A DNA stretch of 64,000 bases from Alteromonas sp. (GCA_964220215.1 CAXPTH010000007.1:1-64000), one strand, 5' to 3'; positions 53,285 through 62,574 are shown, numbered from the stretch's first letter. Numbers and translations are program-made. The notes: a model not told the origin generated them from the sequence alone.

Positions 53285-54727
53285 TTAATCCTCCGCTCTC
53301 AAAAAGTCAACGATATCGATAATTCTATAAAAATAATCACGGGTAGCAAGATTGCTCGATACGCCGCCAATGTGAAATAAAACTGGAATGACAGCAAACC
53401 CTCTTGGCACTTTTAATGCTGTTACTTTATCTTGAATCTCAGATATAATCTCTACGCCTAATTCTCGGCGTTTAAATTTGAACTCACAGACAAATAAGTT
53501 TTTTGTCGTCGTTTGAATTAAGAAATCAATTTGGCAACCGGATTTGGTCGTCGACTTAGACTGCCTAAATGGACCACTCGCAATAATATCCGCCGGATTG
53601 ATGCCTATGCTTTCCAGTAGTGCCTGTCTATTTTGCAAAAGCAACTGTTCTAGCTGCAAGCCACTGTGCGCTTCAAACCCAGGCAAGCTTGATATAGCCG
53701 TATTCTGAAATCCATTTAAATCGATTTTATTTCGCTGAGGCTCTATAAGCTTTAAATAGAAGCGCATATAAGGATCCGAGATGCGATACAGGCTCTGTTT
53801 GAGTGGTTTATTGGTTTTAAACGACCAAAGGGTTTGTTTGGATACAAAGCCAGCAATAATTAGATGTTCCATAACACTGCTTAAAGTACCGCTATGCGGG
53901 AATCCTGTAATTTTGCGCACATCAGCGAGTGTTTTCATGCCATCTTTTAGGCTATCAAGAATTTTTTTATAAGAAGCACCTTTGCCATTAAATAAATCGT
54001 GGAAAATGCGGTCAAATTCTAAAACCAACACGCTATCTTTTTCAAAGCACAACTGTTTTATTAAATCATCTGCTGTTTGGCCAGGGACAACTTGTTCTAA
54101 ATACCAGGGAATACCGCCTAAAATACTGAGTAATTTGTATGTATCATAATCAGAGCCTTGAAATCCTGATATACGGAGTAGTTTATTTGCCTCTGCAATC
54201 GGCAGTGGCTCTAAAGTAATCGTTCGATTAATCCGTCCAAAAAATGCCGTGCTTTTTAGGATATTTTCTTCTATCCATGTCGATACCGACCCACAGAAAA
54301 CAACCATGATCGGGAGTTGCTGTTTATCCCACCAAGCTTTGAGCTTGGGAATAAAACTGGGGTCTTTAGCGCCCATCCATGAGATTTCATCAAATAAGAT
54401 GATGTCGCCAGATTTAATATGGTTGCTTAAATGTTCAAAGGCATCCGTCCAATCTTGGAATGTAAACGGTGGTAGCTTGAGGTGGGTTGCAAGCTGGCGT
54501 GCAAAATGATCGCGCTGGCTTTGGTCATTCATGCCTTCTTGTGGTGCAAGCCCCGCAAAATCCCAAAGTTTATTTTCTGAACAGGAAGCGGCAAAGAAAT
54601 TGATTAACCGACTTTTGCCGACTCTTCGCCTGCCTTTAACAACAACTAAGTTAGGTGTTTTTTTCTTATGAAGCGCCTTTAAGCGATCCAACTCATTTTT
54701 TCGACCAATAAATGTTTGTGTTTCCAT
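53285..54727 (-). CDS. AAA (archaeal-type) ATPase with C-terminal PD-(D/E)xK-like domain
   Basis: FIGR..EL, GRRRVGKS, FDEISW, LGGIPWYL, QIDFLI…VCEFKF. Confidence 0.85.
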   Translation of the reverse strand: METQTFIGRKNELDRLKALHKKKTPNLVVVKGRRRVGKSRLINFFAASCSENKLWDFAGLAPQEGMNDQSQRDHFARQLATHLKLPPFTFQDWTDAFEHLSNHIKSGDIILFDEISWMGAKDPSFIPKLKAWWDKQQLPIMVVFCGSVSTWIEENILKSTAFFGRINRTITLEPLPIAEANKLLRISGFQGSDYDTYKLLSILGGIPWYLEQVVPGQTADDLIKQLCFEKDSVLVLEFDRIFHDLFNGKGASYKKILDSLKDGMKTLADVRKITGFPHSGTLSSVMEHLIIAGFVSKQTLWSFKTNKPLKQSLYRISDPYMRFYLKLIEPQRNKIDLNGFQNTAISSLPGFEAHSGLQLEQLLLQNRQALLESIGINPADIIASGPFRQSKSTTKSGCQIDFLIQTTTKNLFVCEFKFKRRELGVEIISEIQDKVTALKVPRGFAVIPVLFHIGGVSSNLATRDYFYRIIDIVDFLRAED

Positions 54728-54884
54728 CGTAACCTCTTATGCTTTTTTTACTAGTTATACTATAATGAGACTGGTTTTAAGTCAAGAAAAATTGCTCAAA
54801 ACGCATTTTAAATTAAAATGAGACGGCGTGACTGCGCTCGCCATTTTTCACGACGGCCCCACTATTCTCGCAAGCCATATCTAT

Positions 54885-54943
54885 CTTAAAAACAAAAAAA
54901 ACGGTTTTATTAACTAAGGGACGCTGGCTTTATGGGTGATGAT
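54885..54943 (+). repeat. About 60-bp direct repeat, copy 2, overlapping the Fic gene stop
   Basis: Two substitutions and one fewer A than copy 1. Confidence 0.9.
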
Positions 54944-56018
54944 CGGGTTTGCTATACCAAGTTCCACGCGCTTTGCCATGACGGATCAGCAACCCTTGTT
55001 TTACTAATTGAGACAGTCTGTTTTTAATCGTAGGTCTGGATACGCTATCAATTATAGTTTCAGCATCCTTGATGGTAATACGCTGATATTCGTCTACATA
55101 CTGCATAATAAGGACGCTTTCATAAGGCAATGATGCATACGCATTGGAAGTGCTCGTTTTTGCAAGTAGGTGGTCTTTCTGCCGTTTCAATGCGTTCAGA
55201 AAAAAACGTAGCCACGGCAACCAGTCTGCTTGTTTATTTTTAAGCGTTCTTTGGGTTCTTTGCAGCGATAGGTAATAGGCATCTTTATTTTTCTCAATAA
55301 TACTTTCTAGAGAGCTATAGGGTATGTAACTATAGCCAGATTTAAGTAATAGTAAGCTAATAAGTACACGAGATAAACGACCGTTTCCATCTTGAAATGG
55401 ATGAATAGCTAAGAAAACAACATTAAAAATAGCAATGACGATTAACGGATGGTAGCTTTTATCTTCTAACGTTTCTCTTGTCCATGTGAGCAGGTCTTGA
55501 ATTTCTCTTAGCGTGTCAACTGGTGTGCTGGTTTCAAATACCACACCAAGACTCTTGCCTTCAGGGTCAAAGGCTTCAACATTGTTTGCATATTTTTTGT
55601 ATTTCCCTCTGTGCCAACTATCTTTTTCTGAGTGCCTCAATAGCATGGCATGGAATTGTTTCATGTAGTTATCCGTAAGCGATATATCTTTGTGGTTTTC
55701 AAATATCACTTCCATAGCTTCTGCATATCCAGCTACTTCCTGTTCATCACGAGTTAGAAACGAGGCATTCCCTACGTTGCCAAGCAATGCTTCAACTTGG
55801 GCATTATCGAGTTGGGCACCTTCAATACGAGTCGATGAACCAATGCTTTCAATAGTAGCGACATGCTTGAGTGCGTTTAATCGTTCTGGATTTTGATTGC
55901 TACTTGCTTGCCAATTACCCTTGAACTCATCAATTTCAGTAATGAGACGGAGAAGTTCGGGCGTTATAACGAGTGATATAAGGTTCATAGTATTTAATTT
56001 GTTGACTACCTTATCCAA
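54930..56018 (-). CDS. Fic family protein with C-terminal wHTH
   Basis: HPFQDGNGRLSR; start may be 55988. Confidence 0.92.
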   Translation of the reverse strand: MDKVVNKLNTMNLISLVITPELLRLITEIDEFKGNWQASSNQNPERLNALKHVATIESIGSSTRIEGAQLDNAQVEALLGNVGNASFLTRDEQEVAGYAEAMEVIFENHKDISLTDNYMKQFHAMLLRHSEKDSWHRGKYKKYANNVEAFDPEGKSLGVVFETSTPVDTLREIQDLLTWTRETLEDKSYHPLIVIAIFNVVFLAIHPFQDGNGRLSRVLISLLLLKSGYSYIPYSSLESIIEKNKDAYYLSLQRTQRTLKNKQADWLPWLRFFLNALKRQKDHLLAKTSTSNAYASLPYESVLIMQYVDEYQRITIKDAETIIDSVSRPTIKNRLSQLVKQGLLIRHGKARGTWYSKPDHHP

Positions 56019-56068
56019 TTATATCCAATAATAGCCAATATGCAAATGATTTATCCCTTTGACGACGC

Positions 56069-57400
56069 TCAGGGGGCGAAACCAAAAACGCGGCTTGTCA
56101 TTGCAGGTATTTCAGGAAACTTGACCTGTTTACCACGCCCATCGAAAATTGCTTGTCTACAGGCCTGTTTAAACAATTCATCTTCATTTTCATCTAAATA
56201 TTTAACAACCGCAAACAAATCAACCGTTTTTACTAATGCAATCTTGTTTATAGTGGCTACCTTTTTACATTGTTGTGTAAAGTCCACCGTTCTTTTTTTA
56301 GGGTCGTTTAGTCGTTCTGGATTACCAAATAAAATACCAAAAGGCATTTCGTCCACAATTTTATTTTCATAGGCTTGTATTAAATTGTCCGACAATTGTC
56401 TGATTTTGCTTATCTCTATTGCTTTTTTATCCTTGCCTTCACATTCACCGATAAACCTATAGTTTTCTGGACAGCTACCAAGTACATCGAATTCACATTC
56501 ACCATCACGATGGTTTTTTGCATCATATCCTAAACGATTCAGGGCGTTAATCACAGCGTTTTCTAATGGTGTTCCTTGTTCAAAAAGCAAATCCTTTAAA
56601 CCATTTGCTTTAGCTAATTTCTTATTTAATTCATTATTTTTTAAGTTTAGCTCTTCTATTTTATGATTGTTTTTTTGTATCTCTTCTTCAATTTCAATCG
56701 CCTTTGTTAAGGAAAATTCTTCTTGATCGCTCCATTCTGGGGTCGGTGTTTTTTCCGTTTTTTCAGATAACTGCTTATCAATAGATAAAAGACAACCCTT
56801 AAGCCTATCTCCAAACTTTTGTGCGTCATCTGTCCAGCCGGAGAACTGTTTATAGTAGTTATGGTTTAGGTAAGGCAGTGTAACTATATTTCCTTTTTCT
56901 ACTTTATAGACTGCACCCAGTATCTTAGATTGATCTGTGCCCGTAAAGATCACCTCGGAAGGATTGGAACCGTCTGTCTTTTCTACATATAACTGATAGT
57001 TCAAATGGCTTTTTTTGAATGCCTTATAAAATTCAGTAAAAATAGAGTTTCCAGAAAAATTTATACGCTCTCCTTTGGCCGATGTTAAAGCACCCATATT
57101 AATTGGTAAAAAACTATAATTATCGAATTCCCCATAAGAGACTTTTTCTGACAAAAAAACAAAGATGTTTTTTCCATATTTTAAGAAGTCTTCAATTTCT
57201 TTTTCAAACAGTGATACTGCCTCATAATCAGAATCGGATCGTAGTGAATATAATTGTTTTGGTGCGATTAAAAGAAAATCAGCATCCATTAACGACTTTC
57301 CATCTCTGATGCAAATTAAATCCTTTGAATGACCTGGGACTTCATACCCGATTGTGAACATTCGTTTTTTATTTTCTTGGTTTACGTCTTTGTTATTCAT
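56069..57400 (-). CDS. Hypothetical protein with coiled coil and possible C-terminal restriction-endonuclease-like fold
   Basis: LENAV..AL..LGY…EFDV…IGECEGK; AT-rich. Confidence 0.55.
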   Translation of the reverse strand: MNNKDVNQENKKRMFTIGYEVPGHSKDLICIRDGKSLMDADFLLIAPKQLYSLRSDSDYEAVSLFEKEIEDFLKYGKNIFVFLSEKVSYGEFDNYSFLPINMGALTSAKGERINFSGNSIFTEFYKAFKKSHLNYQLYVEKTDGSNPSEVIFTGTDQSKILGAVYKVEKGNIVTLPYLNHNYYKQFSGWTDDAQKFGDRLKGCLLSIDKQLSEKTEKTPTPEWSDQEEFSLTKAIEIEEEIQKNNHKIEELNLKNNELNKKLAKANGLKDLLFEQGTPLENAVINALNRLGYDAKNHRDGECEFDVLGSCPENYRFIGECEGKDKKAIEISKIRQLSDNLIQAYENKIVDEMPFGILFGNPERLNDPKKRTVDFTQQCKKVATINKIALVKTVDLFAVVKYLDENEDELFKQACRQAIFDGRGKQVKFPEIPAMTSRVFGFAP

Positions 57401-57513
57401 TTGAAATTTATTGGTATTATAGATTAGCACACTGCTCAGCGTTTTTTCTATGTTTGCAAAAATATAACCCAGAGCTGTTACATTTTCTTAAACGGATACC
57501 GCCGCTATCGGGT

Positions 57514-58758: not shown

Positions 58759-58835
<77 letters not shown>

Positions 58836-58861: not shown

Positions 58862-59947
58862 TCACGCAACCTCCTTATATTCCACACGAACATCACCAGA
58901 GATGAGTTTCGGCAAGAGTGTATCGCGTAGTTTTTCTAATGTTTGAATTTGTTTTGTGTTTGCATCTAATTTACAAAATATTTCCTCAAACATATGCAAA
59001 ACTTCTTTTTGTTTTTCTATAGGTGGTATTAAAAACTCAGAATCTTTTATAGATTGTGTTGTTAAATTAACTTGGACACCACTATTCGCCTGACTTTGAA
59101 GTTCTTTTATATCATCAAGCTGTTTTTCCTCCCAATCATCTTGTGCATTTTCGATGAAGTGGTGGCGGAAGAGGGTTTCGGCGAGGCTTTCCAGTGTTTT
59201 ATTCTGACGGTGGAGCAGGTCTATCTTATCATCCAAACTACTCAAAACCTCCCCAATAGCCTTTTGTTCTGGGAGCGGTGGAAGGGATATTTCTATTTCA
59301 TTTATTATAGGAACGGTCAAGCTTGGAACTGCAGATCCAACATTCAGAGTTGTATAATTTATAGGAACTAACTGATAAAATAAAAATTTAGGATTTGCTT
59401 TCTCTTTATTAATCGTTGTCCAGAACATTGTATCGACAGTCCAGAATGGCTTGTCTTGGTACATGACGTTATTAAGCGATCCTTTTCTTGGTATTAGTAT
59501 AGATTCATCATCATATAAAAAACTATCAACAAATCTCATAAAGCCACCACTTCCAAAGCAAGGATACTGACCATTTTTTAAGTTTTTATGCTCTTTTCCA
59601 TATTTAACTTCTGCCACATCCCCCAATGTACATGTCCGCCACCCCTTCCGATAAAGAATTTTTCCTTTTGTTTTTATATGTTTTTTTAATTCATCATTAT
59701 CAATGCTATTATATGAAATAATATCAAAGAAAAAGGGGAGATAGGTTTCATCTTCAAAATGCCCTTTTATCTTTGCGGCAAGCATAAAATCCGCTTGCTC
59801 TCCCTTGATAACAATATCAATATCCGATGCTTCTTTATAGGTATCAATTGCTCGAGAACCAAAAAGCACGGCCTCTTCAACCTCTTCATAAGAAGCGAGA
59901 ACATCCTTTATTTCTTGCAATTGTTTTTCTGATAACCCGTATTTCAT
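58862..59947 (-). CDS. hsdS: Fusion of MNT nucleotidyltransferase and type I R-M specificity subunit (second TRD largely missing)
   Basis: GSRAIDTYKEASDID (GSx10DxD), then a TRD, LPPLPEQKAI…LDDKID and LRDTLLPKLISG. Confidence 0.85.
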   Translation of the reverse strand: MKYGLSEKQLQEIKDVLASYEEVEEAVLFGSRAIDTYKEASDIDIVIKGEQADFMLAAKIKGHFEDETYLPFFFDIISYNSIDNDELKKHIKTKGKILYRKGWRTCTLGDVAEVKYGKEHKNLKNGQYPCFGSGGFMRFVDSFLYDDESILIPRKGSLNNVMYQDKPFWTVDTMFWTTINKEKANPKFLFYQLVPINYTTLNVGSAVPSLTVPIINEIEISLPPLPEQKAIGEVLSSLDDKIDLLHRQNKTLESLAETLFRHHFIENAQDDWEEKQLDDIKELQSQANSGVQVNLTTQSIKDSEFLIPPIEKQKEVLHMFEEIFCKLDANTKQIQTLEKLRDTLLPKLISGDVRVEYKEVA

Positions 59948-60351
59948 AGTTCGGCTTTTAATCTTGAATATAATGTTTGTAATGATCGGCTGTATTTATC
60001 AACGATAAACGCTAAAACCTTTTTCATTGTTTCGTGATTATATGTATGGCTGGTTTCATTTCGTATTTCTATTGATTGCATCCAAATTTCAGCATCTTGA
60101 ATCATCTCATCTTGAAAAGCGCGACGGATTGTTTGCTTGCTATTTTTTACATCATCATAGCCTTTGTTTTCTAAATAATCCTTTAGCGTTTTCCAACTTA
60201 ATTCCTGCACAATCTCAAAGGCTTGAACCAGAGCCATTTGTTCTGCTTCATCATCCCTCTCATTCAAATAACCATCCAACCGTCTTTTAAAGACCCCGTA
60301 AGCATTATTGAGATTTTGAAATCTTTGCTTCCATCTTTCTTCATTATTCAT
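59944..60351 (-). CDS. HI0074-family nucleotidyltransferase substrate-binding / HEPN protein
   Basis: RWKQRFQN, QAFE..ELSWKTLKDYL, RNETSHTY. Confidence 0.88.
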   Translation of the reverse strand: MNNEERWKQRFQNLNNAYGVFKRRLDGYLNERDDEAEQMALVQAFEIVQELSWKTLKDYLENKGYDDVKNSKQTIRRAFQDEMIQDAEIWMQSIEIRNETSHTYNHETMKKVLAFIVDKYSRSLQTLYSRLKAEL

Positions 60352-60354
60352 TGT

Positions 60355-61887
60355 CTAGCCTCCTATTTTAACCTTCTTCAACTTTTCCAATATCCGTTGG
60401 TTAAGCGCTGCTTCCTCGGCAAGTTGGCTTTCAAATTCCTTTGTCAGCTCGCTAAAGCGTTCTTTAAAGTCAAAATCATCCTCTGTTTCTTCTAAGCCGA
60501 CATAACGCCCAGGGGTGAGTACATAATCCAGTTTAGCGACTTCTTCTACTTTTACCGTTTTGCAAAACCCTGCGATGTCTTGATAGCCGTCATCCTCGCT
60601 TTTCCATTTATGGTAAGTGTCAGCCACTTTTGCAATCTCTTCATCGGAAAGTTCTTTTGTGCGGCGATTGATCAGATGCCCAAGATTGCGGGCATCAATA
60701 AACAAGACCTCATCCCTGCGATAGGTTTTACCACGACGCATAAACCAGAGGCTTGCCGGGATTTGAGTATTTAAAAATAATTTCGCCGGTAGGTTTACAA
60801 CACAATCCACCATTCTTGCATCAATCAAGGCTTTTCGCATATCACCTTCACCCGATGATTTAGAGGTCAAGGAACCTTTCGCAAGGACAAATCCTGCCAA
60901 TCCGCCTTCGGGCTTCAAGTGATATAAAAAGTGCTGTATCCATGCATAGTTGGCGTTTCCCGCCGGTGGTGTGCCATATTGCCACCGTCCGTCATTTTTC
61001 AGAAGCTCTCCGCTCCAATCATTATCATTAAATGGCGGATTAGCGATAATATAATCAGCTTTAAGGTCTTTGTGAGCATCATTAAGAAAAGAGCCTTCAT
61101 TATTCCATTTGACCTGTGAGCTATCAATTCCACGGATTGCAAGGTTCATTTTTGCCAATCGCCAAGTGGTTTGATTGCTTTCCTGTCCGTAGATTGAGAT
61201 ATCGTTTACTTTCCCCTGATGTTCAGTCACAAACTTTTCAGATTGTACAAACATCCCCCCCGATCCACAGCAAGGGTCAAACACACGCCCCTTGTAAGGC
61301 TCCAGCATTTCAACAAGTAACTGAACCACTGAGCGTGGCGTATAGAACTGTCCGCCTTTCTTTCCTTCTGCAAGAGCAAACTCCCCCAAGAAATACTCAA
61401 AAACATGACCAAGAACATCAGCACTGCGAGCCTTTGCATCCCCAAGGGCAATGTTACTAATCAGATTAATCAATCCACCCAGATTAGTTGGATCAAGATT
61501 TCCACGGGCATAAACCTTTGGCAAAACGCCTTTTAGTGATGGATTATCCTTTTCGATTGCATCCATCGCGTTATCAATATCTTTGCCAATTTCATGACCG
61601 GTTGCACGGGACTTTAGGAACGACCATCTTGCATCTTGCGGCACAAAGAAGACATTTTCCGCTTTGTATTCGTCTTTGTCTTCTGGATCTGCTCCGGCAT
61701 AATCTCCTTCGCCGTTAGTAAGTTTTTCATGAAGCTCTTCGAAGCTGTCTGAGATATATTTTAAAAACATCAAGCCCAGCACAATATGCTTGTACTCTGC
61801 GGCATCAATATTTTTACGGAGCTTATCCGCTGCTGCCCATAATTGTTTTTCGATAGGTTCGTTCTTTGCGTTATTCTGTTTTGTCAT
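60355..61887 (-). CDS. hsdM: Type I R-M methyltransferase subunit M
   Basis: LWAAADKLR, GQFYTP, DPCCGSGG, ANPPF. Confidence 0.95.
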   Translation of the reverse strand: MTKQNNAKNEPIEKQLWAAADKLRKNIDAAEYKHIVLGLMFLKYISDSFEELHEKLTNGEGDYAGADPEDKDEYKAENVFFVPQDARWSFLKSRATGHEIGKDIDNAMDAIEKDNPSLKGVLPKVYARGNLDPTNLGGLINLISNIALGDAKARSADVLGHVFEYFLGEFALAEGKKGGQFYTPRSVVQLLVEMLEPYKGRVFDPCCGSGGMFVQSEKFVTEHQGKVNDISIYGQESNQTTWRLAKMNLAIRGIDSSQVKWNNEGSFLNDAHKDLKADYIIANPPFNDNDWSGELLKNDGRWQYGTPPAGNANYAWIQHFLYHLKPEGGLAGFVLAKGSLTSKSSGEGDMRKALIDARMVDCVVNLPAKLFLNTQIPASLWFMRRGKTYRRDEVLFIDARNLGHLINRRTKELSDEEIAKVADTYHKWKSEDDGYQDIAGFCKTVKVEEVAKLDYVLTPGRYVGLEETEDDFDFKERFSELTKEFESQLAEEAALNQRILEKLKKVKIGG

Positions 61888-61902: not shown

Positions 61903-62223
61903 TTAATACCTTAAAGGTTCTGTTCCTCTATTTAAAATATCAAGATAATCTCTGTAAAGAAAGATCTTGTGTCGTTCTTTGCCTGTTATTTCTTTTACAA
62001 TTCCAAGATTTTCCAGGGCTGTTAAGCTTCTCATCACAGTTGGTTGAGACAGACCTGTTTTTTTACGGATTGATACTGTATTTGAAATCGGAGATTGCTG
62101 TAGATACGTGTGTATGGTCAATACCGCAGCAGCAGAATGATCAGAGTTTTCTATTCTTTTTCTGTCATTTGCAAAAATAAAGAACAAATTTTGAATTTTT
62201 TGTTCTTTGTTAAAAAATATCAA
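61903..62223 (-). pseudogene. C-terminal HTH remnant of a Fic-family gene
   Basis: TGLSQPTV…LENLGIVKEITGKER…YLDIL; catalytic Fic motif absent. Confidence 0.65.
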
Positions 62224-62256: not shown

Positions 62257-62574
62257 TTAGGCCTCATCCCCACACTGATTGGCTACCCACGCCCCATACT
62301 CAGCATTCACCGTCATCACAATCCGGCCAATGCACGGAACACTGTACGGATGATGCTCCGCAATCGATGCCGATACCAAATCCGCCAACGACTCCGTTGT
62401 TTTCATCACCGCCACCCACTCCGACTCCTCGGCAATCGTCCCCGACCACATATACACCGAATCCGCCGCCACCACATTGCCACACGCAATCAGCCGAACC
62501 AATACCAACGACCGAACCAACGCTTGCGCCACCGCCGCACTGGGGCACGGCACATAAAACAGAACTAAGTCCAT
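62257..62574 (-). CDS. cutA: Divalent-cation tolerance protein
   Basis: LIACGN, SVYMW.G, HHPYSVPC. Confidence 0.9.
   Translation of the reverse strand: MDLVLFYVPCPSAAVAQALVRSLVLVRLIACGNVVAADSVYMWSGTIAEESEWVAVMKTTESLADLVSASIAEHHPYSVPCIGRIVMTVNAEYGAWVANQCGDEA

Follow-up and report, generated by a model that had tools for sequence, protein, structure and literature searches.

In class I HEPN/MNT toxin-antitoxin (TA) systems, the MNT antitoxin transfers AMP to the tyrosine of the RX4HXY motif of the HEPN toxin and blocks its RNase (PMC7641770). The best solved-structure matches to both parts of the pair studied here are the Legionella pneumophila HEPN-MNT pair (PDB 8XDJ, 8XEH and 8XEO), the closest of them, whose toxin cleaves rRNA and uses Q44 and E47 (PMC11586414), and Haemophilus HI0074/HI0073 (PDB 1JOG and 1NO5). 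HepT/MntA of Shewanella oneidensis likewise has RX4HXY and GSx10DxD, and PF08780/PF01909 pairs are counted as class I (PMC7641770). A further likeness is to PrrC with EcoPrrI (type IC), where a HEPN RNase gene is embedded in a type I hsd locus. Here we describe a locus in a 64,000-nucleotide stretch of Alteromonas sp. DNA (GCA_964220215.1 CAXPTH010000007.1:1-64000, hereafter the window) in which, at 58862..61887, a predicted HEPN toxin gene lies inside a type I restriction-modification (R-M) operon and its MNT antitoxin is fused to the specificity subunit HsdS. The architecture is recurrent, apparently undescribed, and built from known parts.

All genes of the operon are on the minus strand. 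The first, hsdM (60355..61887), encodes an intact methyltransferase subunit of 510 aa (N6_Mtase and HsdM_N in Pfam; motifs FDPCCGSGG and NPPF) and is followed after 3 nt by the HEPN gene (59944..60351; 135 aa), which in turn overlaps by 4 nt (ATGA) a single open reading frame (ORF) of 361 aa that joins MNT to HsdS (58862..59947). This order, together with the RNETSHTY and GSx10DxD motifs, had been proposed in the original prediction from the sequence alone, and the sequence and Pfam confirmed it. The HEPN protein is a single PF08780 (NTase_sub_bind) domain that scores 72.7 bits against TIGR01987 (HI0074), above the NCBIfam cut-off of 55.8. Its motif (60040..60063) reads R97-NETS-H102-T-Y104, that is, RX4HXY as defined in PMC7641770, with Y104 the predicted AMPylation site; E46, R97, H102 and Y104 are invariant in 48 of 48 aligned neighbours. 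In the fusion ORF, Polbeta/NTP_transf_2 matches aa 11-101 and Methylase_S begins at aa 101 (Pfam). The MNT domain (aa 1-102; 59642..59947) carries the GSx10DxD motif as GSRAIDTYKEASDID, and G30-S31, D42, D44 and the third aspartate, D75, are invariant in 12 of 12 aligned sequences. The toxin and antitoxin genes (PF08780 and PF01909) are adjacent and overlap, and as judged from sequence the pair carries all the features of a class I HEPN/MNT (type VII) system.

The original prediction had taken HepT/MntA systems as the model for the pair. The class I features are indeed all present, but the nearest characterised relative is of the HI0074/HI0073 class (8XDJ/8XEH/8XEO) and not Shewanella HepT/MntA: scores against the HepT/MntA equivalogs NF047751/NF047752 were only 17.1 and 32.4 bits, below the NCBIfam cut-off of 60, and the window pair further differs from HepT/MntA in having HEPN first and its antitoxin fused to HsdS. 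The best solved-structure match of HEPN is HI0074-class (E=1e-20) and that of MNT has E=3e-12; a model of MNT fits PDB 8XEO with a TM(target) of 0.93 and an rmsd of 1.3. As in the Legionella pair, the HI0073-type MNT has no C-terminal α4 helix, and Q43/E46 and Y104 of the window HEPN align with Q44/E47 and the AMPylated Y105. In contrast, the Legionella MNT is a free protein of 108 aa, whereas the window MNT is the N-terminal domain of an HsdS in an hsd operon. The difference from PrrC is greater: PrrC is an ABC-ATPase-HEPN protein held off by the holoenzyme, while the window HEPN is a stand-alone, single-domain protein of 135 aa with no fused ABC-ATPase, its enzymatic antitoxin is joined to an hsd subunit, and there is no HsdR.

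The junction between MNT and HsdS is genuine. No stop codon separates the two parts in contigs from runs X1 and X4 (one study, which may be the source of the window), which cross the junction with 0 differences, or in an X10 contig from another study, which spans 59609-60304 with 5 differences and no gap. These contigs and more than 100 homologs rule out a sequencing artefact. An internal hsdS start was also looked for, and there is none at the junction of the window copy, where the six codons before W103 contain no start codon. An AlphaFold model of the fusion (mean pLDDT 86) shows MNT, a whole TRD1 (the first target recognition domain) and both long HsdS helices; low confidence (pLDDT <50) is limited to aa 282-295, and the C-terminal tail is also low.

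Fusions of MNT to Methylase_S were surveyed together with their neighbours, as the original prediction had suggested, and proved to be recurrent. We gathered at least 155 fused proteins; GSx10DxD is kept in all 148 that were examined, and none of the 120 nearest long MNT relatives is without the motif. A whole-protein search returned 45 fusions, the query included, among the top 120 homologs. When proteins of 198-632 aa were ranked by MNT only, Methylase_S was present in 118 of 120, and remnants of HsdS were seen in the remaining two. A ranking by the central HsdS region gave 20 fused proteins in 120, with no other Pfam family listed on any of them, and the close HsdS relatives without MNT number 100 of 120. 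We scored the loci of 30 fusions after dropping duplicates, counting only loci with room on the contig, and found a recurrent order hsdM-HEPN-MNT::hsdS-hsdR: HEPN is directly upstream in 25/27, hsdM is present in 19/19 and hsdR in 14/16. RX4HXY is present in all 26 HEPNs that adjoin a fusion, and the two HEPN exceptions are L001, which has a frameshifted HEPN in an error-rich assembly, and L151, which has none. Among 77 metagenome loci picked by MNT similarity alone, 21 are fused, 1 is unfused in the hsdM-hsdS slot, 6 are cut by a contig end and 50 rows are free elsewhere.

In samples of GTDB from four phyla, 1045 genomes not counting the seeds contained at least 7 fusions; the E-values used were strict, and no more than 4 to 11 candidates were scored in each genome. 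In the slot of these genomes, MNT beside hsdS is fused in 7 cases and unfused in 2, and other passengers (DUF1016, ORF6N, PIN, Fic, Abi_C, Bro-N and unknown proteins) are fused in 0 of 18 (Fisher p=4e-5), a comparison biased by a profile that scores fusions higher and by genomes that are not independent. The PADLOC S-subunit model PDLC03138 already spans MNT and TRD1 (aa 14-271), and thus the fusions sit in databases as ordinary S subunits; sources that name them call them plain S subunits, and the antitoxin has been overlooked. According to PMC3710099, fusions of HEPN-M proteins to MNT and methylase domains occur now and then, and 16 HEPN clades are linked to R-M loci. We found no description of MNT fused to HsdS in the literature searched, which excluded subscription journals and included the accessible parts of PMC4621449, PMC3632139, PMC3710099, PMC12839542, PMC2701414 and PMC13000451, though Additional file 1 of PMC3710099 may list it.

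The fused MNTs fall into several lineages interleaved with free MNTs, with no fewer than 3 changes needed to explain the starred branches of the tree and 13-14 in the best trees. A single fused clade was rejected by the approximately unbiased test (p=5e-35; 62 rows, 99 columns), for which the rows were chosen after a quick, unrooted tree of 115 rows. Part of the scatter could also come from repeated loss and from swapping of cassettes. An unfused relative (L113), in which the stop of MNT and the start of hsdS overlap, likely shows the precursor of the fusions. Junction peptides such as RG(M/V/L)SEW resemble a decaying ribosome site and start. A methionine lies within six residues before the HsdS tryptophan in only 27 of 148 fused proteins, and any start codon remains at the DNA junction in 12 of 30, the window copy not among them. 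The MNT class to which this antitoxin belongs has no C-terminal α4 docking helix (PMC11586414), so that the MNT C-terminus would be free, and HsdS accepts an N-terminal fusion, since an HsdM-HsdS fusion engineered by frameshift removal is active (PMC3510504). Like the fused MNT-HEPN protein FhepTA (PMC13000451), that fusion illustrates the loss of a stop and start between neighbours, with an MNT C-terminus in the one and an HsdS N-terminus in the other tolerating it, but no antitoxin is linked to a restriction subunit in either.

The window copy itself is decayed. TRD1 (59282..59641) is apparently whole and of a short, 124-aa type, and the central conserved coiled-coil region follows with the first residues of TRD2 (59112..59281). 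Comparison with the full-length P0249 and L001, which carry the parent TRD2, reveals an in-frame deletion of 120 aa after aa 278/279 (junction near 59111), leaving a TRD2 remnant and the C-terminal conserved helix (58862..59111). This deletion is not an assembly error; it is bridged in contigs from X4, X5, X7 and X15 and encoded in P0101, P0224, P0225 and P0247. A functional type I R-M system has an intact HsdM, as here, and an HsdS with two TRDs and two conserved helices, which the window HsdS no longer is; its relatives are mostly whole, with a median of 484 aa. Only 26 nt separate the end of the fusion ORF from tRNA-Arg(TCT) (58759..58835, plus strand), where hsdR would normally come. We found no hsdR at the locus, and the HSDR_N and SWI2_SNF2 profiles gave nothing in the 82%-complete genome, so hsdR is likely absent from the cell. 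The window hsdS is the sole hsdS in its genome assembly. Because hsdR was not found and TRD2 is deleted, the window copy cannot back up restriction.

The operon occupies an eroded, tRNA-linked island in which no integrase was seen. This island begins at the 3' end of the tRNA, is 3.4 kb long with 38.5% GC compared with 54-57% in its flanks, and its site is empty in a congeneric genome (G001). Upstream of hsdM, the left part of the island retains only the C-terminal helix-turn-helix remnant of a SoFic-type gene (61903..62223, minus strand), corresponding to the last 92 of 361 SoFic model positions (269-360; PADLOC). Searches gave no sign of carriage by a phage or plasmid: no relative was found on viral contigs, 0 of 319 plasmid records had a relative covering 80%, and 0 of 14 phages had one.

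Several alleles of this locus circulate in the population. At least half of the stretch is present in 18 of 24 runs among those listed. In X5 (X6 is seemingly the same data) and X15, the DNA from the end of hsdM to the central region of hsdS is replaced by a sequence whose MNT is of another lineage, again joined in one protein to the C-terminal half with this deletion (P0101, P0224 and P0225). The loose end in X15 translates up to the junction of the replacement, the P0225 and X5 contigs are both 3369 nt, and P0224 was found on 15 contigs. Compared with the whole parent P0248, this allele is also without 59 aa of TRD1, and it retains ~490 nt for HEPN, from which we infer the gene. A third allele (X10, P0247) combines the shared TRD2 deletion with yet another TRD1. 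The deletion is therefore common to three or more alleles, found across runs from several studies, and MNT is intact and hsdM full-length in all of them. Contigs that match members of the same hsdM cluster in length carry whole fusions (P0028, P0040 and P0248) and one unfused HsdS (P0262). The 15 members of this cluster are all full-length (510-514 aa); third codon positions account for 8 of 9 hsdM differences among those listed. The allele replacements, the shared TRD2 deletion and the intact hsdM thus indicate that HEPN, MNT and TRD1 are exchanged as one block and that the pair survives the loss of DNA recognition. Together these loci form a natural allele series (whole, TRD2-deleted, doubly deleted and unfused) and include two unrelated TA pairs on near-identical hsdM, and hence make it directly testable whether such toxins are guards or hitch-hikers.

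We favour, with a probability of about one half, the reading that an HI0074/HI0073-class TA pair became fused where its stop overlapped the next start, and that addiction now ties the pair and the hsd genes to each other. The process would begin in the hsdM-hsdS slot, which in this hsd family is seen to accept many passenger genes. When HEPN precedes MNT, the stop of MNT would come to overlap the hsdS start and a small indel would fuse the two, in several MNT lineages; the overlap is seen in one unfused relative and presumed for the rest. Most fusions are without an hsdS start, and HsdS is then produced only by way of MNT, so that clean removal of the pair costs the specificity subunit and deletion of the locus takes the antitoxin with it. 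By analogy with characterised relatives, MNT would AMPylate Tyr104 of HEPN and keep the RNase off. To our knowledge, HsdS is unstable without HsdM. The fused MNT might, more speculatively, rely on the HsdS coiled coil and HsdM for its stability, as an MNT domain can be unstable without its fusion partner (PMC13000451), and this would explain why hsdM and the reading frame outlast hsdR and the TRDs. Addiction was the alternative offered in the original prediction and it fits the data. The arrangement likely makes the hsd cluster hard to lose. Type I R-M systems are generally regarded as non-addictive; a recurrent enzymatic antitoxin on HsdS would, if true, make them so.

Several observations weigh against addiction. 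Frame-keeping TRD deletions do occur in other fusions (P0183 and P0198, and by eye P0140 and P0212), but there is no significant excess of in-frame TRD deletions, with 4 of 120 among fused proteins and 1 of 104, probably a 5' fragment, among unfused ones (p=0.63). Fusions broken off or frameshifted after MNT exist (P0123, P0138, P0184, P0186 and L036), and the dependence of MNT on HsdS and HsdM is for that reason a weak step. The L151 fusion has no HEPN upstream. Another HEPN-MNT pair of this class, this one free, is present in the genome of the window (L110:6339-7063, on contig C28 of G000), 34-36% identical, with RNKMSHQY and an intact GSx10DxD. Finally, at L109:6253-7407 (G020) a HEPN gene is followed by an MNT fused in-frame to a formyltransferase (Formyl_trans_N and _C, fmt-like), probably a housekeeping gene, which shows that read-through needs no R-M function. 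In a broader and more novel reading, which we put forward tentatively and think unlikely, MNT::HsdS loci would form a widespread class of type I R-M system that has arisen repeatedly and carries a built-in dead-man switch. The antitoxin would be a structural part of the methyltransferase, working or surviving only when HsdM is assembled, so that attack or loss would lead to RNase arrest; HEPN-MNT and TRD1 would move as one cassette, and in some lineages, the present one among them, the toxin would keep a restriction-dead HsdM-HsdS scaffold alive.

The formyltransferase fusion also speaks for a neutral ratchet, in which the pair acts exactly as a free TA system, neither gaining nor giving anything by the fusion, and the fusion, a tolerated read-through, accumulates only because both the C-terminus of MNT and the N-terminus of HsdS are free and a start codon, once lost, is hard to regain. 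Such a history is somewhat unlikely in our view. Gene order does place MNT against hsdS, junctions vary in length and show decaying remnants of ribosome-binding sites and starts, unfused versions persist (L035, L113 and L157), and the engineered HsdM-HsdS fusion (PMC3510504) is active. However, passengers of other kinds that adjoin the hsdS start or overlap it, most of them larger and in a small sample, are fused in none of 18 cases, and the fusion has arisen repeatedly across MNT lineages. Among the unfused versions, L157:4810-14130 (G823) has the order hsdM-HEPN-MNT-(91 nt)-hsdS, together with hsdR and, on the opposite strand, another hsdS that shares the N-terminus of the first; it looks like an invertible hsdS locus.

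The original prediction had put first the possibility that the RNase is a guard. In intact loci MNT would be part of M2S1/R2M2S1, and Ocr, ArdA, Stp-like proteins or proteolysis would stop AMPylation, freeing HEPN and aborting infection as in a PrrC-like system. The proposal is not supported for the window copy, which has lost TRD2 and for which neither the locus nor the assembly yielded an hsdR; a widespread sister allele, in which part of TRD1 is cut out as well, still keeps the pair (its HEPN judged from the ~490 nt left). For intact members of the family we consider it doubtful. The near confinement of the fusion to HsdS (118/120) and its repeated origin, the presence of hsdR in 14 of 16 loci with room, the precedent of PrrC/EcoPrrI and the general proposal of R-M-linked HEPNs as back-ups (PMC12707154, PMC3710099) are all consistent with it. 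However, unlike PrrC, the HEPN has no sensor ATPase, and AMPylation is covalent, so a disturbed methyltransferase would free only newly made HEPN and a fast switch would be unlikely. Furthermore, the same MNT/HEPN clade is also found free, away from hsd genes (the 50 rows above), and 100 of 120 close HsdS relatives do without MNT. With its three genes, the fusion locus offers a compact way to tell whether HEPN toxins embedded in R-M systems guard them or hitch-hike on them. It is highly improbable that MNT, once tethered, also acts on another target within the R-M complex or on DNA, such as by AMPylating HsdM or HsdR as a restriction switch, so that HEPN neutralisation is only one of its jobs: tethering would raise its local concentration and the L151 fusion has no HEPN, but HEPN with an intact acceptor tyrosine is kept in 25/27 loci, MNT matches a dedicated antitoxin fold, and there is no evidence for any other substrate.

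Other loci of the family show variations of their own. Between MNT::hsdS and hsdR, L028:8500-11477 has SIR2-like and HerA-like genes, and others have GmrSD, Abi_C, RhuM, PIN or ABC-three-component genes. One Rickettsiales genome (G041) has two hsd loci (L001:5151-7397 and L107:3782-6569) with nearly the same MNT on different TRDs, in one of which a reverse-transcriptase-like gene precedes hsdR. The HsdS proteins of L101:1510-3204 and L005:4762-6666 have C-terminal extensions of ~200 aa with no Pfam match.

A promoter/terminator scan of the window locus gave 13 against 9.3 expected, an uninformative excess, and only 6-8% of the words of the stretch were present in the RNA runs X19 and X20. Between the island and the next gene lies an ORF (window 62257-62574), which we take to be cutA-like; the orthologous site in G001 showed no match. 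At 53285-57430, behind tRNA-Ser, the window contains a second low-GC stretch that encodes a 453-aa protein without a family match, a whole SoFic-type gene and an ATPase that matches PADLOC PDC-S27.

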